A stretch of DNA of 64,000 nt from positions 2,868 through 66,867 of the forward strand of contig JAGXKG010000005.1 of NCBI GenBank assembly GCA_018335335.1, given 5' to 3'. This document shows positions 1-52,051 of the stretch, one piece after another (the stretch's first letter is position 1; every line of letters begins with the position of its first letter). The position numbers were made by a program, and so were the translations under genes. The notes beneath the pieces were generated by a model. It was not told where the DNA came from. It did not search any database and saw nothing but the letters and a program-made list of their open reading frames with translations. This stretch comes from Candidatus Thorarchaeota archaeon. Its GTDB lineage: Archaea; Asgardarchaeota; Thorarchaeia; Thorarchaeales; Thorarchaeaceae.

Positions 1-712
1 ATCCTCGCCACTTCTATGAACTCCCTGGTCCGTGTTTCAAGACGGATGATGCTGATTCGATCCACTCAGGTCCTACTACAGGGTCTCCCCTAGTTCGTTT
101 TCCGAGTATCTTCTCTTTTAATCAGACATCCTTTGATTAGATTGCTGGTTTCAGGTACTTTTCACCCCGCTTCCGCGGTACTTTTCAACTTTCGCTCGCG
201 CTACTAGTCTGCTATCGGTTTGACATAGTATTTAGGCTTCGCAGATTGTACCTGCGTTATTCACACGAGACAACCGACCCATGCTACTCTGGGATCCACA
301 GACATGCCAACGTTTTACACCTACGGGGGTGTCACCCTCTTTGCCGCGTCGTTCCAGACGACTTTGATTTGGACGTTGAGGCAATTGTCCGTGGCCCGTA
401 CACCACATCCCCCAACACTTTTCGTCTTGGGGTTTAGTTTGGCCTTTTCCCTTTTCGCTCGCTGTTACTCAGGGAATCACGACTTGTTTTCTACTCCTGC
501 TCATACTAAGATGTTTCAATTCTGAGCGTTCCCCTTCCCGAAATGACTCGGGAATAGCACGAGGTAATAGCCCGTGCTTGGAGGTCCTATTCGGAATCCC
601 GCGGATCAATGGCTTCATGCGCCTACCCACGGAATATCGCCGCTTGTCGCGTCCTTCTTCGGCATGTCAACCGAGTCATCCACCAACAACCGTACAGCGA
701 ATTGCAGTCCTA
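1..712 (-). rRNA. 23S (LSU) rRNA, 5' ~700 nt; the gene continues beyond the window start
   Basis: The reverse complement carries conserved LSU blocks: CCGTCTTGAAACACGGACC (rc of 27-45), GTACCGCGGAAGCGGGGTGAAAAGTACCTGAAACC (rc of ~147-181) and GGTGGATG...GAAGGACGCGACAAGCG (rc of ~642-684), which marks the 5' end region. The 5' boundary (~705-715) is estimated by analogy to the E. coli spacing. Confidence 0.85.
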
Positions 713-19967: not shown

Positions 19968-20432
19968 GTGAGTATCCAAGAAGCCTTCAGGAAGATGATT
20001 AATCTAGCCATCGAGCGAGAAGAAGAAGCCCACGATTTCTATATGGAAGGAGCAGAAAATGCAGAGAATCGAGCATCAAAGAAGCTGCTCGAAGAACTTG
20101 CGGAACAGGAAGAGGATCACAAGGAGAAGCTGCAGAAGGCACTTGAAGATGGTGTATGTGAGACGTTCGCCTGCACGCTTGAAGAAGTTGAGAAGAGAAA
20201 ATTGGAAGATTACCTTATAGAAGTGCCCTTGAATCCATCATCCCCACCTCAAGATGTACTCATTGTTGCAATGAAACGAGAAAAGGCATCCTTTGAGTTC
20301 TACTCAGCTCTTGCCGAGCTGACTGAAGATCCAGCCAGTAAATCGGTCTTCCGAACTCTGGCAAAAGAAGAGGAAGAGCATAAGAACAATCTTCAGCAAA
20401 TGTACGATGAAAACATTGCCCCGTGGATGTAG
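19968..20432 (+). CDS. Ferritin-like/rubrerythrin-family diiron protein without a rubredoxin domain
   Basis: Two E...EE.H half-sites (EREEEAHDFY...EQEEDHKE and EKASFEFY...EEEEHKN). Confidence 0.7.
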   Translation: MSIQEAFRKMINLAIEREEEAHDFYMEGAENAENRASKKLLEELAEQEEDHKEKLQKALEDGVCETFACTLEEVEKRKLEDYLIEVPLNPSSPPQDVLIVAMKREKASFEFYSALAELTEDPASKSVFRTLAKEEEEHKNNLQQMYDENIAPWM

Positions 20433-20477: not shown

Positions 20478-21755
20478 CTATTTGTGATGCAGGTTCTGAG
20501 CTGCTACGAAACTGAGGCCGTTTTCCGTTAGAACCTGAGCTGTGCGATTGAGAGCATCGTGCTTGTCCAGGTAGTTCGTCAGGAGTTCTGACATCAGACC
20601 CTTTTCTTGTATTTCTTTCTTGCTGAGGAAATACTCGAGTATGTTGCTGGGATGGTCCCGTGCAGCGTCCACTTCTGGAATTCCACCCTCATGCTTTGCA
20701 CTGATGTTCTTGACATGGTCTGCAAGCTCGACCAGTTCGTCTAGGCGATCATAGGGCTGTCGCACAATGCCCTTGTAGGTTTCTGTGATGTGATGCTCGA
20801 TACGGACAACATCGGTAAAACCGAAATGGTTTCGAATCATTGCCGCAAGCTCGATGGTTTCGTTGTTGACACTATTGCTCAGATTGAATCCAATAAGAGG
20901 AGTTGTTCCATCATCCCGACTGAAGAGCTTGGCGGTCATGAGCGTCCACAAACAGGCGTAGGGATTGTCATTTCCAAGAAAGACACTAATCTTGAACTCC
21001 ATATCTATCCCTAGCTTGTGCAACATGTAGCCAACGAGTACACTACCAGGGTTTGTATTGAGAACTTGTTTGATTCCATATTCGGTATAGTAATGGATGA
21101 ACTCATCAGCCCATTTCACTGCGTAATCGTTAGGCATCCCTACCCCACCGAAATAACCCGTTAGAGTTTCTGGCCCCCCTAGGTGGACATTCACGGGCTT
21201 CCCATCAGGGCCCGGAAGCGTCCCCTTTGTATCTAATGTTTCAACATACGAAGCGCCAACAATCTGCATTGCAGCAGCGAAAGCGAGGACATGGTCGTCC
21301 TGGACTTGTTCTTCCATTGATCGTACCCGAATGAATCTACCAGGCATCACCTCCTCGTGCTCGATTGCCTTTTTTGCTTCACGAATCACCCAAGGAAAGA
21401 ACTGACACGCACTTATCTCCAAGGTAACCGCGTGTTCTTCATCAAATGACATGGTTTCGTATCTGTCGCCAAGCACCTTACGCCTATAGGCAGGAATGGA
21501 AATGAACTCATCATCATCTCGTGCCTTCTGTAACCACTCTAGGTCTTCGACAAATGGCGAGTCCTTGTCCCGAAGCCGGGACATCAAAGTATCTAGGTCT
21601 CTGGCTTCCCGCGCCTTTGCGTTTATCTCTTCAACACCACCGTGCTTCTCAATGACGTCCAATAGGTCATTTACAAGGGGGTTATCTTCACTGACCAGCA
21701 GGTCGTTTATTTCAGCCAGTCTTTCAGGGTCGATTTTCAACTTCTGCATATCCAT
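20478..21755 (-). CDS. Hypothetical protein (425 aa), no recognisable family
   Basis: Long uninterrupted ORF with protein-like composition. It has a helical N-terminal ~110 aa and a globular C-terminal part. Confidence 0.6.
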   Translation of the reverse strand: MDMQKLKIDPERLAEINDLLVSEDNPLVNDLLDVIEKHGGVEEINAKAREARDLDTLMSRLRDKDSPFVEDLEWLQKARDDDEFISIPAYRRKVLGDRYETMSFDEEHAVTLEISACQFFPWVIREAKKAIEHEEVMPGRFIRVRSMEEQVQDDHVLAFAAAMQIVGASYVETLDTKGTLPGPDGKPVNVHLGGPETLTGYFGGVGMPNDYAVKWADEFIHYYTEYGIKQVLNTNPGSVLVGYMLHKLGIDMEFKISVFLGNDNPYACLWTLMTAKLFSRDDGTTPLIGFNLSNSVNNETIELAAMIRNHFGFTDVVRIEHHITETYKGIVRQPYDRLDELVELADHVKNISAKHEGGIPEVDAARDHPSNILEYFLSKKEIQEKGLMSELLTNYLDKHDALNRTAQVLTENGLSFVAAQNLHHK

Positions 21756-21923: not shown

Positions 21924-22529
21924 TCACCATACATCATTTACAAGTCTTCGTTTTGTCTTCTCGAGGACCTCACTTAGGTTGACATCTCCTCCTAACTGAT
22001 TCGTAACAAACTCGTCCAGCTGAGATGCGATTTGGAGGCACCTTTCTTGACCTCGGATGGTATCATCAGAATGATCCATATAGTCCATCATCCCAAGAAC
22101 CCCGTAATCAATAGTCAAATTGCTGATTTCACGTACGAGTTTTGAAGCAAAGAGCTCAACTCGTAATGCCAGCCAATCAGAATCCTCAGCGGCGAGAGTA
22201 TCAATCACCCGGAGAAGCGAAAAATGGAATTGATACTTAAGCTCCCTCAATTTTGTTCTCATAGCTTTGGTCTCTTCAGAAAGCCGCTCCTCCTCCGTCT
22301 CTGCAGGTGTGTTTGTTAGGATGTTCACGCGGTCCCAAGTTGAAATGTCCTCTTTCACATCTTTGAGCCTACGTTGAGTCTCCCTCAATTCACACTCAGT
22401 ATACCGGATATCACTGACAGTGCTGCTTATCTGTTCATCATTTCGAGCTGCAGAAACGAGTTCGTTGGCATATTGCTCAATCGCTCCGCCCACAGTCATT
22501 GCAATCGGTTGTGCTTGCAGGTAATGCAA
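21924..22529 (-). CDS. Hypothetical coiled-coil protein
   Basis: ORF only, with heptad-like charged helices. Confidence 0.45.
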   Translation of the reverse strand: MHYLQAQPIAMTVGGAIEQYANELVSAARNDEQISSTVSDIRYTECELRETQRRLKDVKEDISTWDRVNILTNTPAETEEERLSEETKAMRTKLRELKYQFHFSLLRVIDTLAAEDSDWLALRVELFASKLVREISNLTIDYGVLGMMDYMDHSDDTIRGQERCLQIASQLDEFVTNQLGGDVNLSEVLEKTKRRLVNDVW

Positions 22530-22561: not shown

Positions 22562-23206
22562 CTACCAACTAATCTCAAGTCTGCCTACTTCTTGACGGAT
22601 ATAGCTTCTGACAATGGGGCCAACAATAGCTGCAACTATTGCCCCTACTGTTACTTGGATGAGATTCAGAAAAATCAGTTCGAGAAGCGCCGCCATCCAA
22701 GTTATTCCGATTATGAAAATTTCACCGAGGAGGTAACCAGTCAGCATAACAAGGGCACCAGCTGCAAGGGCGACTATATCCAAGACACGAATGCTATCAC
22801 CGCCATCCCGATAGCGAGATATGAGACTCACAGTCATTGCTTCACTGCCTTTTACCACAAGGGTAATGGGAACAAATGGCATGTAACCTAATACCGCATC
22901 CCCGGTAGCAGAACCAACACCACCTACAAAGAAGGCCCCAACAGGACCAAGAATAATACCACTTGTCATAACAAGAATATCACCGAAGTTGAGATATCCT
23001 GTTGAAGTGGGAAATGGAACTGATATCATGGCTGTTGCAACCGTGGTGAGGGCAGTCAATATGGCCATGATTGCGAGATAGATCGTCCTGCTAGCGCTTT
23101 CAAATTCATTCGATTCCAAGAATGGTTCTCCCTGTTCAGAACGTTCATAGTGTCCAGGAGTCGAATCGGAAAGCGTGTCAGTAGCGGAATTACTGCGAGG
23201 GGTCAT
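22562..23206 (-). CDS. ECF-transporter S-component-like membrane protein
   Basis: Five to six TM segments with S-component-like stretches (VPFPTSTGYLNFGDILVM, GPVGAFFVGGVGSATGD). Confidence 0.55.
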   Translation of the reverse strand: MTPRSNSATDTLSDSTPGHYERSEQGEPFLESNEFESASRTIYLAIMAILTALTTVATAMISVPFPTSTGYLNFGDILVMTSGIILGPVGAFFVGGVGSATGDAVLGYMPFVPITLVVKGSEAMTVSLISRYRDGGDSIRVLDIVALAAGALVMLTGYLLGEIFIIGITWMAALLELIFLNLIQVTVGAIVAAIVGPIVRSYIRQEVGRLEISW

Positions 23207-23285
23207 ACGAACACAACATAACAGGCCAACAGAACAATATATAAGTTTCTACCTATATATAGGCTATAATCAAGGGTGACGGTGG

Positions 23286-24782
23286 ATGTCGTTTGTCTCA
23301 AAATTGGTATGCACAGAATGTGGAAATGAGCTCGACAGGAAATCCACACGCACCCGCTGTGATAGATGCGGCGGAGTTCTTCAAGCAAAATACGACTGGA
23401 ATCATGTCCAAGAGGGCATATCCAAAGGAAACCTACAATGTCTGCCTACAACCCTTTGGAAATACAAAGAATTTCTCCCGGTAACTGCCGAGATGAAGAC
23501 TATCACCTTGGGGGAAGGGGGAACCCCGCTCCACGTCTCTGAGAGGTTAGCCAGTACCATTGGTTGTGCAAAGCTGTACCTAAAGGACGAAACCGCAAAT
23601 CCGACAGGTTCCTTCATAGATAGAGGAACTGCAGTTGAGATATCGGTAGCTCGTGACCTTGGAAATGTATCGATTCATTGCACTTCCAGCGGGAATCTTG
23701 CAGCATCACTTGTAGCCTATGCTGCACGCGCTGCAATCCGTTCAACAATCCATCTTCCACGCAACAGAAAGATGGACATGGGCAAGCTGTATCAGATTGT
23801 AGCTTTTGGCGCAGAATTGGAGGTTTCAAGGGATTACCAAGAGGCCATGAGAGAGGCCAAAGAAAGAGAAATTCACAGTCGTATTCTAGAGGCAGACAAT
23901 CCGTGGTTTCTTGAGGGGCTCAAAACGACGGGGTATGAAATCTGTGACCAGCTTGATTGGTCTGTTCCGGACTGGTTGATTGTTCCGGTGGGAAGTGGCG
24001 GGCATGTTTCGATGATCTGGAAAGGGTTGAAAGAGCTACATACACTTGGGTTCATCGATAGGCTTCCTCGACTTGTTGGCACGCAAGCTGAAGAGTGTGC
24101 ACCTATCGTTGACGCTTTCAACAAGGGGTCCGAGGTGATTGAGACGCCAACCGGCGTATCAGAAGTAGCAATGGACATCAGTATGAGAAATCCTTCGTGT
24201 GGAAAGCTGGCCCTTCATGCGCTCAACGAGTCGAATGGGCTGGCTCTATCTGTGCCTGACGACGACATGCTTGCTGCAGTGGGAGAGCTAGCGAAGAAGG
24301 AAGGGGTGTTTGCAGAACCTGCTTCTGCAACAACACTTGTGGCATTACGACAACTCTGTGAAGAGGGAACGATCGCTCCGGACTCAACCATAGTCTGTGT
24401 CATTACAGGCATGGGGCTGAAGTACCCAGAGGTGGCCCGTGAACTGGTGAAGGGAGAACGAAAGCTACGTAATATCCTCAACCAAGTTGAACATCGAAAA
24501 TATACCACTAAACTTGGGCGATCGAAAATCTCCATCCTCAAACTCCTTGCTGAAGGCGAGTCATATGGATACCAGATTTGGAAGGACCTTGCAAACCAGT
24601 TTGGAATCGAGATACGGGTTGCAACAGTCTATCAACATTTGAAGGATCTTGAGGAGGAGGGGTTGCTTACATCAACGAAAATAGAGCAGGTCCCCCGAAA
24701 AACCAAGTACTATCATCTCACGGAAAAGGGACAATGGGCACTCGAGAAGCTTGGGAAATTCGAAGAGACAGGACGATTATAG
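23286..24782 (+). CDS. Threonine-synthase-like PLP-fold domain lacking the catalytic lysine, fused to a C-terminal PadR-type wHTH
   Basis: N-terminal Zn ribbon CTECG...CDRCGG. ThrC-like motifs LYLKDETANPTGSFIDRG (Ile where Lys is expected), SSGN.AAS.VAYAAR and PVGSGGH. C-terminal PadR signature ESYGYQIW...VYQHLKDLEEEGLL...KYYHLTEKG. Confidence 0.8.
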   Translation: MSFVSKLVCTECGNELDRKSTRTRCDRCGGVLQAKYDWNHVQEGISKGNLQCLPTTLWKYKEFLPVTAEMKTITLGEGGTPLHVSERLASTIGCAKLYLKDETANPTGSFIDRGTAVEISVARDLGNVSIHCTSSGNLAASLVAYAARAAIRSTIHLPRNRKMDMGKLYQIVAFGAELEVSRDYQEAMREAKEREIHSRILEADNPWFLEGLKTTGYEICDQLDWSVPDWLIVPVGSGGHVSMIWKGLKELHTLGFIDRLPRLVGTQAEECAPIVDAFNKGSEVIETPTGVSEVAMDISMRNPSCGKLALHALNESNGLALSVPDDDMLAAVGELAKKEGVFAEPASATTLVALRQLCEEGTIAPDSTIVCVITGMGLKYPEVARELVKGERKLRNILNQVEHRKYTTKLGRSKISILKLLAEGESYGYQIWKDLANQFGIEIRVATVYQHLKDLEEEGLLTSTKIEQVPRKTKYYHLTEKGQWALEKLGKFEETGRL

Positions 24783-24931
24783 TAGGCTGCATGCTTTTGG
24801 CCAGGGAATGGTTCGACTGTTCGTTCAAATGAGCATTCATCGTGATAAGGCAAGGATTTTAACAATTTGCCACTAATTATTTACGATGGTCATAACACCA
24901 TGTTGTGACCCGCCTTGAGGTTGAGATAAAG

Positions 24932-25321
24932 ATGGATAAGAAATGGCTACAAACAGCGGATTGGAAGAATGAAAAGCATGTACCTGTGATCGATGCTCCT
25001 GATAAGGTGAAAAAGGGGGAAGTCGTCAAGGTTACGGTCCAGGTGGGCAAGGAGATACCACACCCGAACACGACAGCACACCACATAAAGTGGGCAGATC
25101 TCTTTTTCTGGCCGGACGGGGAGAAGTTCCCATATGAGATCGGGTATGTCTCATTTGATGCACACGGAGCATCAGTAAAGGGAGCGGACACAAGCACTGT
25201 GTATTGCGAACCATATGCTACGTTCGCATTCAAAACAGAGAAATCTGGAAAGCTCCTTTCGACCAGTTACTGTAACATTCACGGCCTCTGGAAAGACGAG
25301 AAAGAGCTCAAAGTGGAATAG
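24932..25321 (+). CDS. sor: Superoxide reductase (neelaredoxin-type, 1Fe-SOR)
   Basis: EKHVPVI, HP....HHI.W and CNIHGLW iron-ligand motifs. GAGGT lies upstream of the ATG at 24932. Confidence 0.85.
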   Translation: MDKKWLQTADWKNEKHVPVIDAPDKVKKGEVVKVTVQVGKEIPHPNTTAHHIKWADLFFWPDGEKFPYEIGYVSFDAHGASVKGADTSTVYCEPYATFAFKTEKSGKLLSTSYCNIHGLWKDEKELKVE

Positions 25322-50901: not shown

Positions 50902-50954
50902 GATCTTAGAAAGCATCGTTCATCGAGGTCTACATATACATATGTAGATATATA
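50902..50954. repeat. Repeat R1, copy a: ghost of the vapB promoter plus first codons
   Basis: 44/53 identical to 51999..52051, including the core ATATACATATGTAGATATATA and an ATG.TTTCTAAGA start (minus strand). Confidence 0.7.
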
Positions 50955-51767: not shown

Positions 51768-52012
51768 GACAAATCAACTCGCTCCAAATCAAATCCTTCG
51801 CCAATCTTTTCCAGAGTCTCTTCGAGCTTCCGAGCTTCAGCATCAGTCAGATCTGACCAACCTTCCGATGTCTTGGCCCACATTCGAAGTGATGTTGTGG
51901 TCTTTCCTCTGGCGAGCCGAGCTATAGTATCACCGAAACTTTCGCCTGGTAACTTCATTTTCTTGAGGAGGTTATACACATCTTCAGTAACAGATATGGT
52001 CTTAGAAACCAT
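51764..52012 (-). CDS. vapB: VapB-type antitoxin (archaeal small-antitoxin family, DUF217-like from memory)
   Basis: MVSKTISVTEDVYNLLKKMKLPGESFGDTIARL, translationally coupled to vapC. Confidence 0.8.
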   Translation of the reverse strand: MVSKTISVTEDVYNLLKKMKLPGESFGDTIARLARGKTTTSLRMWAKTSEGWSDLTDAEARKLEETLEKIGEGFDLERVDLS

Positions 52013-52051
52013 TGTTTATCGTGATTCATATATACATATGTAGATATATAA
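51999..52051. repeat. Repeat R1, copy b: functional vapB promoter and 5' end
   Basis: See copy a. It contains a TATA-like TTATATAT ~40 nt upstream of the vapB ATG and the palindrome TACATATGTA. Confidence 0.7.

Follow-up and report, generated by a model that had tools for sequence, protein, structure and literature searches.

A 64,000-nucleotide stretch of a Candidatus Thorarchaeota archaeon (assembly GCA_018335335.1, contig JAGXKG010000005.1), called the window throughout, encodes a 498-residue protein that joins a threonine synthase (ThrC)-like domain to a C-terminal PadR-type winged helix. The fusion gene and an energy-coupling factor (ECF)-type S-component gene diverge across a 79-bp TATA-rich spacer (23207..23285), which contains a candidate operator. 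The fusion protein (the window protein) is a candidate vitamin B6-responsive transcription factor. The main features of the locus are as follows.

23286..24782, forward strand: ThrC-like/PadR fusion gene, 498 aa, candidate vitamin B6-responsive transcription factor (open reading frame (ORF), PALP and PadR matches, AlphaFold2 model, Foldseek).
23295..23393, forward strand: N-terminal zinc ribbon, residues ~4–36, with Cys9, Cys12, Cys25 and Cys28 (conserved cysteines, three short strands in the model, position inside the NF006050 match).
23502..24410, forward strand: fold-type II pyridoxal 5′-phosphate (PLP) domain of ThrC type, residues 73–375, where other residues take the place of the catalytic Lys and of the presumed substrate-phosphate Arg (Pfam PALP, alignments, family-specific positions).
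23616..23618, forward strand: codon ATA for Ile111, at the Schiff-base lysine position (alignment to solved ThrC).
24519..24770, forward strand: C-terminal PadR-type winged helix and terminal helix, residues 412–495 (Pfam PadR, PDB sequence matches, model).
23237..23263, no strand assigned: candidate operator ATATATAAG-TTTCTA-CCTATATATAGG, a 9-N6-9 inverted repeat conserved across phyla.
22562..23206, reverse strand: ECF-type S-component of the PdxU/HmpT family, candidate B6-vitamer transporter (PF07155, HmpT match, divergent pairing).

A preliminary description of this DNA had read the ORF as a zinc ribbon, a full-length ThrC-type PLP domain and a PadR-type winged helix, and profile searches and structure prediction bore out all three parts. 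The CxxC...CxxC zinc ribbon (C9/C12/C25/C28) falls within the NF006050 match (residues 1–390), and each of its cysteines is at least 90% conserved across the fusion family. Pfam PALP covers residues 73–375 (E 1e-64). Pfam PadR (PF03551) covers residues 417–487 (E 8e-18), and its score of 64.6 bits against a gathering cut-off of 27 places the protein in the PadR family. The same part matches solved PadR proteins by sequence (3L7W, 2ESH, 5DYM and LmrR entries). An AlphaFold2 model made with 33 family members as input had a mean predicted local distance difference test (pLDDT) score of 84.3 and a predicted template-modelling (TM) score (pTM) of 0.76, and its best Foldseek matches were the ThrC structures 2D1F and 2ZSJ (TM on target 0.84–0.86). 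A low-confidence linker (403–409) joins the enzyme-like domain to the winged helix, which was modelled as helices 412–422, 428–439 and 445–457, strands 461–469 and 471–478 (the wing) and helix 480–495. The last helix comes after the wing in this monomer model, where a PadR dimerisation helix would lie. The window protein is a true PadR-domain protein, unusual in its architecture.

The motif NPTGSFIDRG of the window protein places Ile111 opposite the Lys of NPTGSFKDRG in solved ThrC 2ZSJ, 6CGQ and 2D1F (37–39% identity over about 330 residues), so the Lys-to-Ile change read earlier from the codon holds. Close homologues were taken as the best 120 matches from a 5.8-billion-protein collection (45–90% identity to the window protein). 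All 120, from Thor-, Hod-, Loki-, Odin- and Sif-archaeal assemblies, contain PALP and PadR, and the lysine position is Ile in 105, Leu in 15 and Lys in none. Orthologues with Lys and an assembly join had been raised in the preliminary description, and neither was found in this search. A sequencing error or a join of two genes was rejected because the same fusion with Ile or Leu recurs in many independent assemblies.

Representatives were taken as the best 150 from an exhaustive search of 1.84 billion cluster representatives, and 64 of them are winged-helix fusions of about 440–500 aa. Lys is replaced in 62 of these (by I, L, V, M, T, R, N, A, S or F) and retained in two. Among the 84 relatives without a winged helix, which include 73 plain ThrC (about 410 aa) and nine ThrC with LeuA_dimer (about 615 aa), Lys is present in 82. 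Of the other two, both apparently incomplete, one is a 362-aa fragment and one a 519-aa protein in which PALP ends 34 residues before the C-terminus. The association gives a Fisher p of about 1e-36, which is descriptive only, as the sequences are related by descent. Loss of the lysine goes together with the winged-helix fusion across the family.

Residues were compared between 61 fusions and 73 plain ThrC relatives. Position 111 is Lys in 100% of plain ThrC and hydrophobic or Arg in fusions. Position 208, which stands opposite the Arg of NPYRIEGQKT in the alignment to solved ThrC, is F, L, Y or I in fusions (Phe208 in the window protein), whereas Arg is commonest in plain ThrC (33/73). Position 138 is Leu in fusions, including the window protein, versus A, M or T in plain ThrC. 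Position 297, in the low-confidence model loop 294–298, is Asp or Glu in 54 of the 61 fusions versus A, G or S in ThrC. Retained in fusions are F110, D112, R113, N137, the glycine loop G236-x-G238, T374, G375, G377 and K379.

In Thermus thermophilus ThrC numbering, we take Lys61 to be the Schiff base and catalytic base, and Arg160 and Thr88 to hold the substrate phosphate of O-phosphohomoserine. We assume likewise that in ThrC the Asn of S-T-G-N contacts O3′ of PLP, the glycine loop the cofactor phosphate and the Thr of (L/I)TG N1 of PLP; F110, N137, G236/G238, T374, G375 and G377 would then be retained PLP-contact positions. On that basis, the cofactor pocket appears to be preserved, and catalysis and phosphohomoserine binding to be destroyed. 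The window protein reaches the ThrC-type fold score and has neither the Lys nor the presumed substrate-phosphate residues. It should not be filed as threonine synthase, because two defining ThrC features fail despite the hidden Markov model (HMM) cut-offs it passes. The earlier judgement that the domain is probably not a synthase is reinforced by the absence of Lys in all 120 close homologues and by the replacement of the position-208 Arg.

Close homologues, where named, are called "threonine synthase". This uniform annotation arises because NCBIfam NF004170 (PRK05638, "threonine synthase"), a 442-position model, covers the whole fusion, and because the window protein passes the curated ThrC models NF006050 (321 vs cut-off 303) and TIGR00260 (205.6 vs 167.1). 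Whether the architecture was already catalogued had been left undecided; databases do list it, but under the name threonine synthase only. In a second subfamily the lysine position is occupied by Arg (NPTNSFRDR, 119 of its 120 best matches) and in a few members still by Lys; the Arg-type proteins come nearest the NF004170 cut-off. The same lineage can carry both the Ile/Leu-type and the Arg-type subfamily, and these may sense different vitamers.

The family occurs in Asgard archaea (Thor, Hermod, Hod, Loki, Sif, Borr, Baldr), Bathyarchaeia, Nitrososphaerota (Terraquivivens and others), Methanomethylicia and Thermoprotei, and in some genomes labelled Thermoplasmata or Methanobacteriota. In the searches made here it was found in Archaea only. 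All winged-helix fusions are contiguous in a neighbour-joining tree of the PALP region, with a K/R/S/A subgroup beside plain ThrC. Monophyly or an order of events is not claimed from this tree, as the midpoint root falls inside the fusion group. Lys-containing relatives of 610–620 aa were considered as winged-helix fusions and rejected, being ThrC with LeuA_dimer. These zinc-ribbon ThrC of about 615 aa with the LeuA allosteric/dimerisation domain PF08502 (P0166, P0178, P0214) present another regulatory add-on to ThrC.

Gene context was examined in 80 loci from species-representative genomes together with three earlier loci and the window, and counts are over 83 loci. ORFs were called crudely and searched with an HMM built from the window S-component. 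The PF07155 match of the window gene (E 8e-28, 98 bits vs cut-off 26.7) agrees with the S-component-like gene described previously. A divergent PF07155-type gene lies immediately upstream of the fusion gene in 62 of the 83 loci, and somewhere in the locus in 63. Eight loci without a PF07155 gene have pdxS and/or pdxT (PLP synthase; Pfam SOR_SNZ 4e-96, SNO 2e-52) within 2 kb. Both genes are present in six of these: divergent in L050 (Borrarchaeum) and in L057, L058, L060 and L070 (Bathyarchaeia), and downstream of the fusion gene on the same strand in L067 (Baldrarchaeum). Only pdxT was detected in L054 and L056. Of six distinct contexts of Arg-type and Lys-retaining paralogues, five include an adjoining PF07155 gene. 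Genes of the threonine or methionine pathways are not a recurrent feature of the fusion-gene neighbourhoods of the 83 loci, and a search for a second ThrC in the window found none.

The B6 transporters PdxU and PdxU2/HmpT belong to PF07155 (PMC9997740), and HmpT transports pyridoxamine (PMC4860826). The sole meaningful PDB match of the window S-component is HmpT (4HZU chain S, E 2.9e-12), at low identity. By our own alignment, three of six HmpT pocket residues are identical (Tyr120, Asn140, Gln143) and one is conservatively changed (Glu41 to Asp); His84 and Gln87 are Lys and Glu. The window S-component has an N-terminal extension of about 40 residues relative to HmpT, and it differs from HmpT/PdxU2 and PdxU, with which it shares PF07155, in having no EcfA/A′/T genes nearby. 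The neighbour gene is a candidate B6-vitamer transporter.

The spacers of related loci share ATATATAAG-N6-CCTATATATAGG in the same place, across phyla and with high information content; the flanking CC/GG bases and the fixed N6 spacing are conserved across phyla as well. In the window, the right arm extends to a perfect 12-bp palindrome, CCTATATATAGG (23252..23263), and the exact 12-bp sequence occurs only once in 64 kb. Allowing up to two mismatches, 64 of the 83 loci have an operator-like site between -120 and +60 relative to the called start. The remaining 934 kb contain 23 other such sites, several of which are miscalled starts or second operators. The candidate operator is a perfect 22-bp palindrome in Hodarchaeota. 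Tandem overlapping sites sharing the middle arm occur in L050 (Borrarchaeum), L084 (a Loki paralogue locus) and L088 (Odinarchaeum). Where the S-component gene is parted from the regulator (L062, L105, L132), the operator remains with the S-component gene.

Other lineages and the Arg-type subfamily have palindromes that keep the 9-N6-9 geometry but differ in both arms in a coordinated way (L054, L061/L069, L086, L192). Paralogues next to PF07155 genes have their own 9-N6-9 palindromes (Arg-type L086, L088, L192 and L193; Lys-type L084), that of Arg-type L192 being AATAGTAAAG-TTATAA-CTTTACTATT. Symmetric variation is clearer between subfamilies than within the main one. The exact operator pattern was also scanned in 241 million metagenome records, which gave 102 stretches, 80 of which were read. 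In 65 of the 80 the match is flanked by the regulator and the S-component gene, one to each side, and in nine more at least one flank carries a regulator, PF07155 gene or pdxS/T (74/80 in all). By flanking-ORF reading the other six are unrelated: two phage-like, one bacterial-looking, two of no assigned type and one upstream of a Thi4-like gene. The arm centres lie about 29 bp upstream of the regulator ATG and about 35 bp upstream of the S-component ATG, so that the two arms likely coincide with the TATA boxes of both divergent genes, which would be leaderless or have short leaders.

These observations point to the window protein as probably a ThrC-derived, non-catalytic B6 sensor-repressor of B6 uptake and synthesis genes, an archaeal analogue of bacterial PdxR. 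A zinc-ribbon threonine synthase would have been fused to a PadR winged helix and, with catalysis lost, become a transcription factor. Having lost the Lys at the Ile111 position and the Arg at position 208 (Phe208), it would not make threonine. Its ThrC-like domain would bind a B6 vitamer, PLP or pyridoxamine 5′-phosphate (PMP), non-covalently and so read the free B6 pool; in the absence of the lysine the vitamer could bind and leave freely, as would suit a sensor of that pool. Acidic residue 297 might, speculatively, favour the amino or hydrated aldehyde group of the vitamer. ThrC and PadR proteins are both dimeric, and a dimer is proposed to bind the inverted repeat ATATATAAG-N6-CCTATATAT(AGG) at 23237..23263. 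When loaded with B6, the protein would occlude the TATA-binding protein and transcription factor B (TBP/TFB) at both TATA boxes and repress its own gene and the S-component gene. Elsewhere among archaea, where this protein and operator precede pdxS-pdxT, repression would fall on those genes. The opposite polarity, with activation or with the apo form as repressor, is possible. The ligand, the DNA binding and the repression under abundant B6 are all predicted from sequence and gene context.

The preliminary description had suggested that a dead ThrC fold serves as the ligand sensor of a PadR-type factor, with the S-component gene as a plausible target. The conserved Lys loss and conserved fusion argue for the sensor comparatively; the divergent pairing in 62 of 83 loci and the palindrome in the spacer argue for the target. 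Its candidate ligands fared differently. Vitamin B6, as PLP or another vitamer, is the better candidate; phosphohomoserine and threonine are less likely, since the presumed phosphate-binding Arg position is hydrophobic and the apparently regulated genes are B6 genes.

Several points weigh against a B6 sensor-repressor. Neither a PF07155 gene nor pdxS/T is nearby in 12 of the 83 loci. The window contains no pdxS/pdxT and no ECF energising module (no ABC ATPase), which may be encoded elsewhere. The roles of Lys61, Thr88, Arg160 and the phosphate loop are presumed, and the ligand is predicted from gene context and residue conservation. HmpT was first predicted as a hydroxymethylpyrimidine (HMP) transporter (PMC4860826). 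One exact operator match (L145, 1250..1276) lies, by sequence reading only, upstream of a Thi4-like thiazole synthase gene; it is either chance or a link to thiamine metabolism. On the other side of this match are a small helix-turn-helix (HTH) protein and a ThiF/MoeB-like gene; no regulator lies close by. Because each operator arm resembles a TATA box, core promoters could account for part of the conservation. Mirrored covariation is marginal, with eight compensated deviations against 5.2 expected (p about 0.05, shuffle, 44 unique main-subfamily operators).

The last two points would fit a TATA-rich element that is a strong bidirectional core promoter only, with the winged helix acting elsewhere or non-specifically and adjacency reflecting co-expression. 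The arms do resemble archaeal TATA boxes at the expected distance (about 29–35 bp) from the start codons, and covariation is weak within the main subfamily, but the exact element is unique among promoters of the window and almost restricted to this locus type in metagenomes, its CC/GG flanks and N6 spacing are conserved across phyla, paralogous subfamilies have different palindromes of the same geometry, and tandem overlapping sites occur (L050, L084, L088). We regard this explanation as very unlikely. Regulation of thiamine or HMP salvage instead of B6 would agree with the first prediction for HmpT-type S-components (PMC4860826), with the Thi4-like match in L145 and with PurM-like AIRS/AIRS_C genes beside the S-component gene in L062 and L192. 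It appears quite unlikely, given that pdxS and/or pdxT replace the S-component gene in eight loci, that the sensor derives from a PLP enzyme with its presumed PLP-contact positions kept, that HmpT carries pyridoxamine (PMC4860826), that the thi4 case is single among 80 motif loci, and that the AIRS proteins lack ThiL-like motifs by our reading.

An effector from the amino-acid pathway (O-phosphohomoserine, threonine, homoserine or a related compound), with control of amino-acid-related uptake, is suggested by the closest homologues of the sensor domain, which are ThrC enzymes, and by the family-specific acidic D/E297, which could contact an amino group from the substrate-side loop 294–298. Against it stand the hydrophobic residue in place of the presumed substrate-phosphate Arg, the linked pdxST or PF07155 vitamin-type S-component genes and the lack of a recurrent threonine or methionine pathway gene in the neighbourhoods, and we consider it unlikely. 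The protein might instead still be an enzyme, a threonine synthase or other PLP activity without an internal aldimine, with a DNA-binding add-on. RbkR is a precedent for an archaeal enzyme and regulator in one (PMC8305020), and the NF006050 and TIGR00260 cut-offs are exceeded. Yet the Lys is absent in essentially the whole clade, the presumed substrate-phosphate Arg is also lost and every full-length relative without a winged helix retains Lys, which makes an enzyme extremely improbable.

The B6 sensor-repressor proposed here has likenesses among known regulators. It shares with MocR-family PdxR the combination of a PLP-enzyme fold and a winged helix and, as proposed, B6 sensing. PdxR consists of an N-terminal GntR winged helix and a fold-type I aminotransferase; the window protein is a fold-type II ThrC with zinc ribbon and C-terminal PadR, so the domain order is reversed and both domains are unrelated to those of PdxR. 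MocR/PdxR proteins typically retain the PLP lysine, which is lost in the window protein. With a fold-type II PALP domain, a C-terminal PadR module and no PLP Lys, the window protein falls outside MocR/PdxR and may be seen as a functional analogue of PdxR. In bacteria, PdxR regulons take in pdxST, pdxK and pdxU, and no MocR/PdxR occurs in Archaea (PMC5320631), where alone the fusion family was found. Divergent transcription from the targets is shared with PdxR, and so is the target type, pdxST and a PF07155 B6 transporter (PMC5320631). The gene context and shared operator would match a PdxR-like regulon of pdxST and pdxU type, by analogy of function. A PLP-fold/winged-HTH type of B6 regulator is known from bacteria, and we propose that it was invented here independently from a different PLP fold.

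Zinc-ribbon ThrC (NF006050/PRK08197; TIGR00260) share the fold, zinc ribbon and glycine-rich loop with the window protein at 37–39% identity. The window protein differs in Lys to Ile, the presumed phosphate Arg to Phe and the extra PadR module, and the fusion-gene context is vitamin B6 genes and not threonine biosynthesis genes. Inverted-repeat operators and autoregulation are typical of the PadR family, and in small-type PadR (LmrR), too, one C-terminal helix comes after the winged helix. Stand-alone PadR proteins bind ligand in or between PadR domains, whereas the window PadR module is C-terminal to a 400-residue enzyme-like sensor. ThiR, a ThiN-like domain with an HTH, is an archaeal enzyme-derived vitamin regulator. 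RbkR (riboflavin kinase and HTH) is likewise an archaeal vitamin regulator whose sensor is a copy of a vitamin-binding enzyme (PMC8305020). The sensor and DNA-binding folds and the vitamin differ from those of RbkR and ThiR, and RbkR keeps enzyme activity whereas the window protein is without the catalytic residue.

We lean, with less assurance than for the window protein itself, towards an archaea-wide family of B6-responsive factors formed by one early fusion and subsequent Lys loss (Ile/Leu/Val or Arg subfamily), in which a non-covalent PLP/PMP sensor acts on TATA boxes and PdxR is reinvented. A literature search found no description of a ThrC-like/PadR family as regulator, and none of a regulator of vitamin B6 homeostasis in Archaea. 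If true, the family fills this gap in Asgard archaea, Bathyarchaeia, Nitrososphaerota, Thermoprotei, Methanomethylicia and some Thermoplasmata/Methanobacteriota, and it would be a case of an enzyme turned sensor through loss of its covalent cofactor anchor, convergent with MocR. The defined operator makes regulon prediction feasible. B6 transporters are a recognised gap (PMC9997740), and the conserved target gene is a specific archaeal B6-transporter candidate, which would be the first in Archaea. As the family passes curated ThrC cut-offs, its public name "threonine synthase" is probably an annotation error, and a threonine synthase that is not encoded at this locus may be credited to Asgard archaea and other uncultured archaea when their metabolism is reconstructed. 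The functions given here to the fusion protein and its neighbours are read throughout from genes and their context, with statistics over related sequences.

Two further ORFs follow the S-component gene.

21924..22529, reverse strand: 201-aa ORF, separated by 32 bp from the end of the S-component gene and in the same orientation, perhaps co-transcribed with it (ORF call).
20478..21755, reverse strand: 425-aa conserved protein, downstream of the S-component gene on the same strand, membership of the system uncertain (locus clustering).

The 201-aa ORF has no Pfam or NCBIfam match and is a singleton in the clustering of related loci (cluster 454). For the 425-aa protein, searches of Pfam, NCBIfam and the PDB gave no match. 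In 35 Thor/Loki-type loci its gene follows the S-component gene in the same orientation, usually at a distance of 60–170 bp; it may be a further B6-locus member or simply syntenic. If the B6 reading is true, further regulon members might include this protein, GNAT acetyltransferases and a PurM-like protein.

GNAT acetyltransferase genes recur beside the regulator/S-component pair (L001 6118..7270, L028 5350..6099, L029 5203..5916, L030 8682..9623, L086 8812..9273), and one lies between regulator and S-component gene in 14 loci. L030 has a second perfect operator copy (8688) before a GNAT gene (Acetyltransf_1 and Acetyltransf_18) that diverges from a radical-SAM gene. The GNAT acetyltransferases are possible extra regulon members. 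PurM-superfamily (AIRS/AIRS_C) genes adjoin the S-component gene in L062 (1706..2755, Nitrososphaerota) and L192 (6298..7218, Bathyarchaeia). They could encode a kinase-like salvage enzyme, and our reading found no ThiL-like sequence motifs in the AIRS proteins of these two loci.

A ferritin/rubrerythrin-like gene (19968..20432, forward strand) and a desulfoferrodoxin-domain gene of superoxide reductase type (24905..25321, forward strand) flank the window locus. This synteny is also present in Loki locus L003 and about 30 other loci and is probably a matter of common descent, not of function. The locus has its nearest relative in a Thorarchaeota metagenome-assembled genome, at 79% protein identity. 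An archaeal 23S rRNA 5′ part, cut by the window edge, lies at 1..707 on the reverse strand (5′ 691 positions, Rfam RF02540, 511 bits). Two 51-nt direct copies (50904..50954 and 52000..52050), 84% identical and 1096 bp apart, sit in a 1.6-kb stretch without long ORFs, and each ends in a TATA-rich palindrome, ATATATACATATGTAGATATATA.

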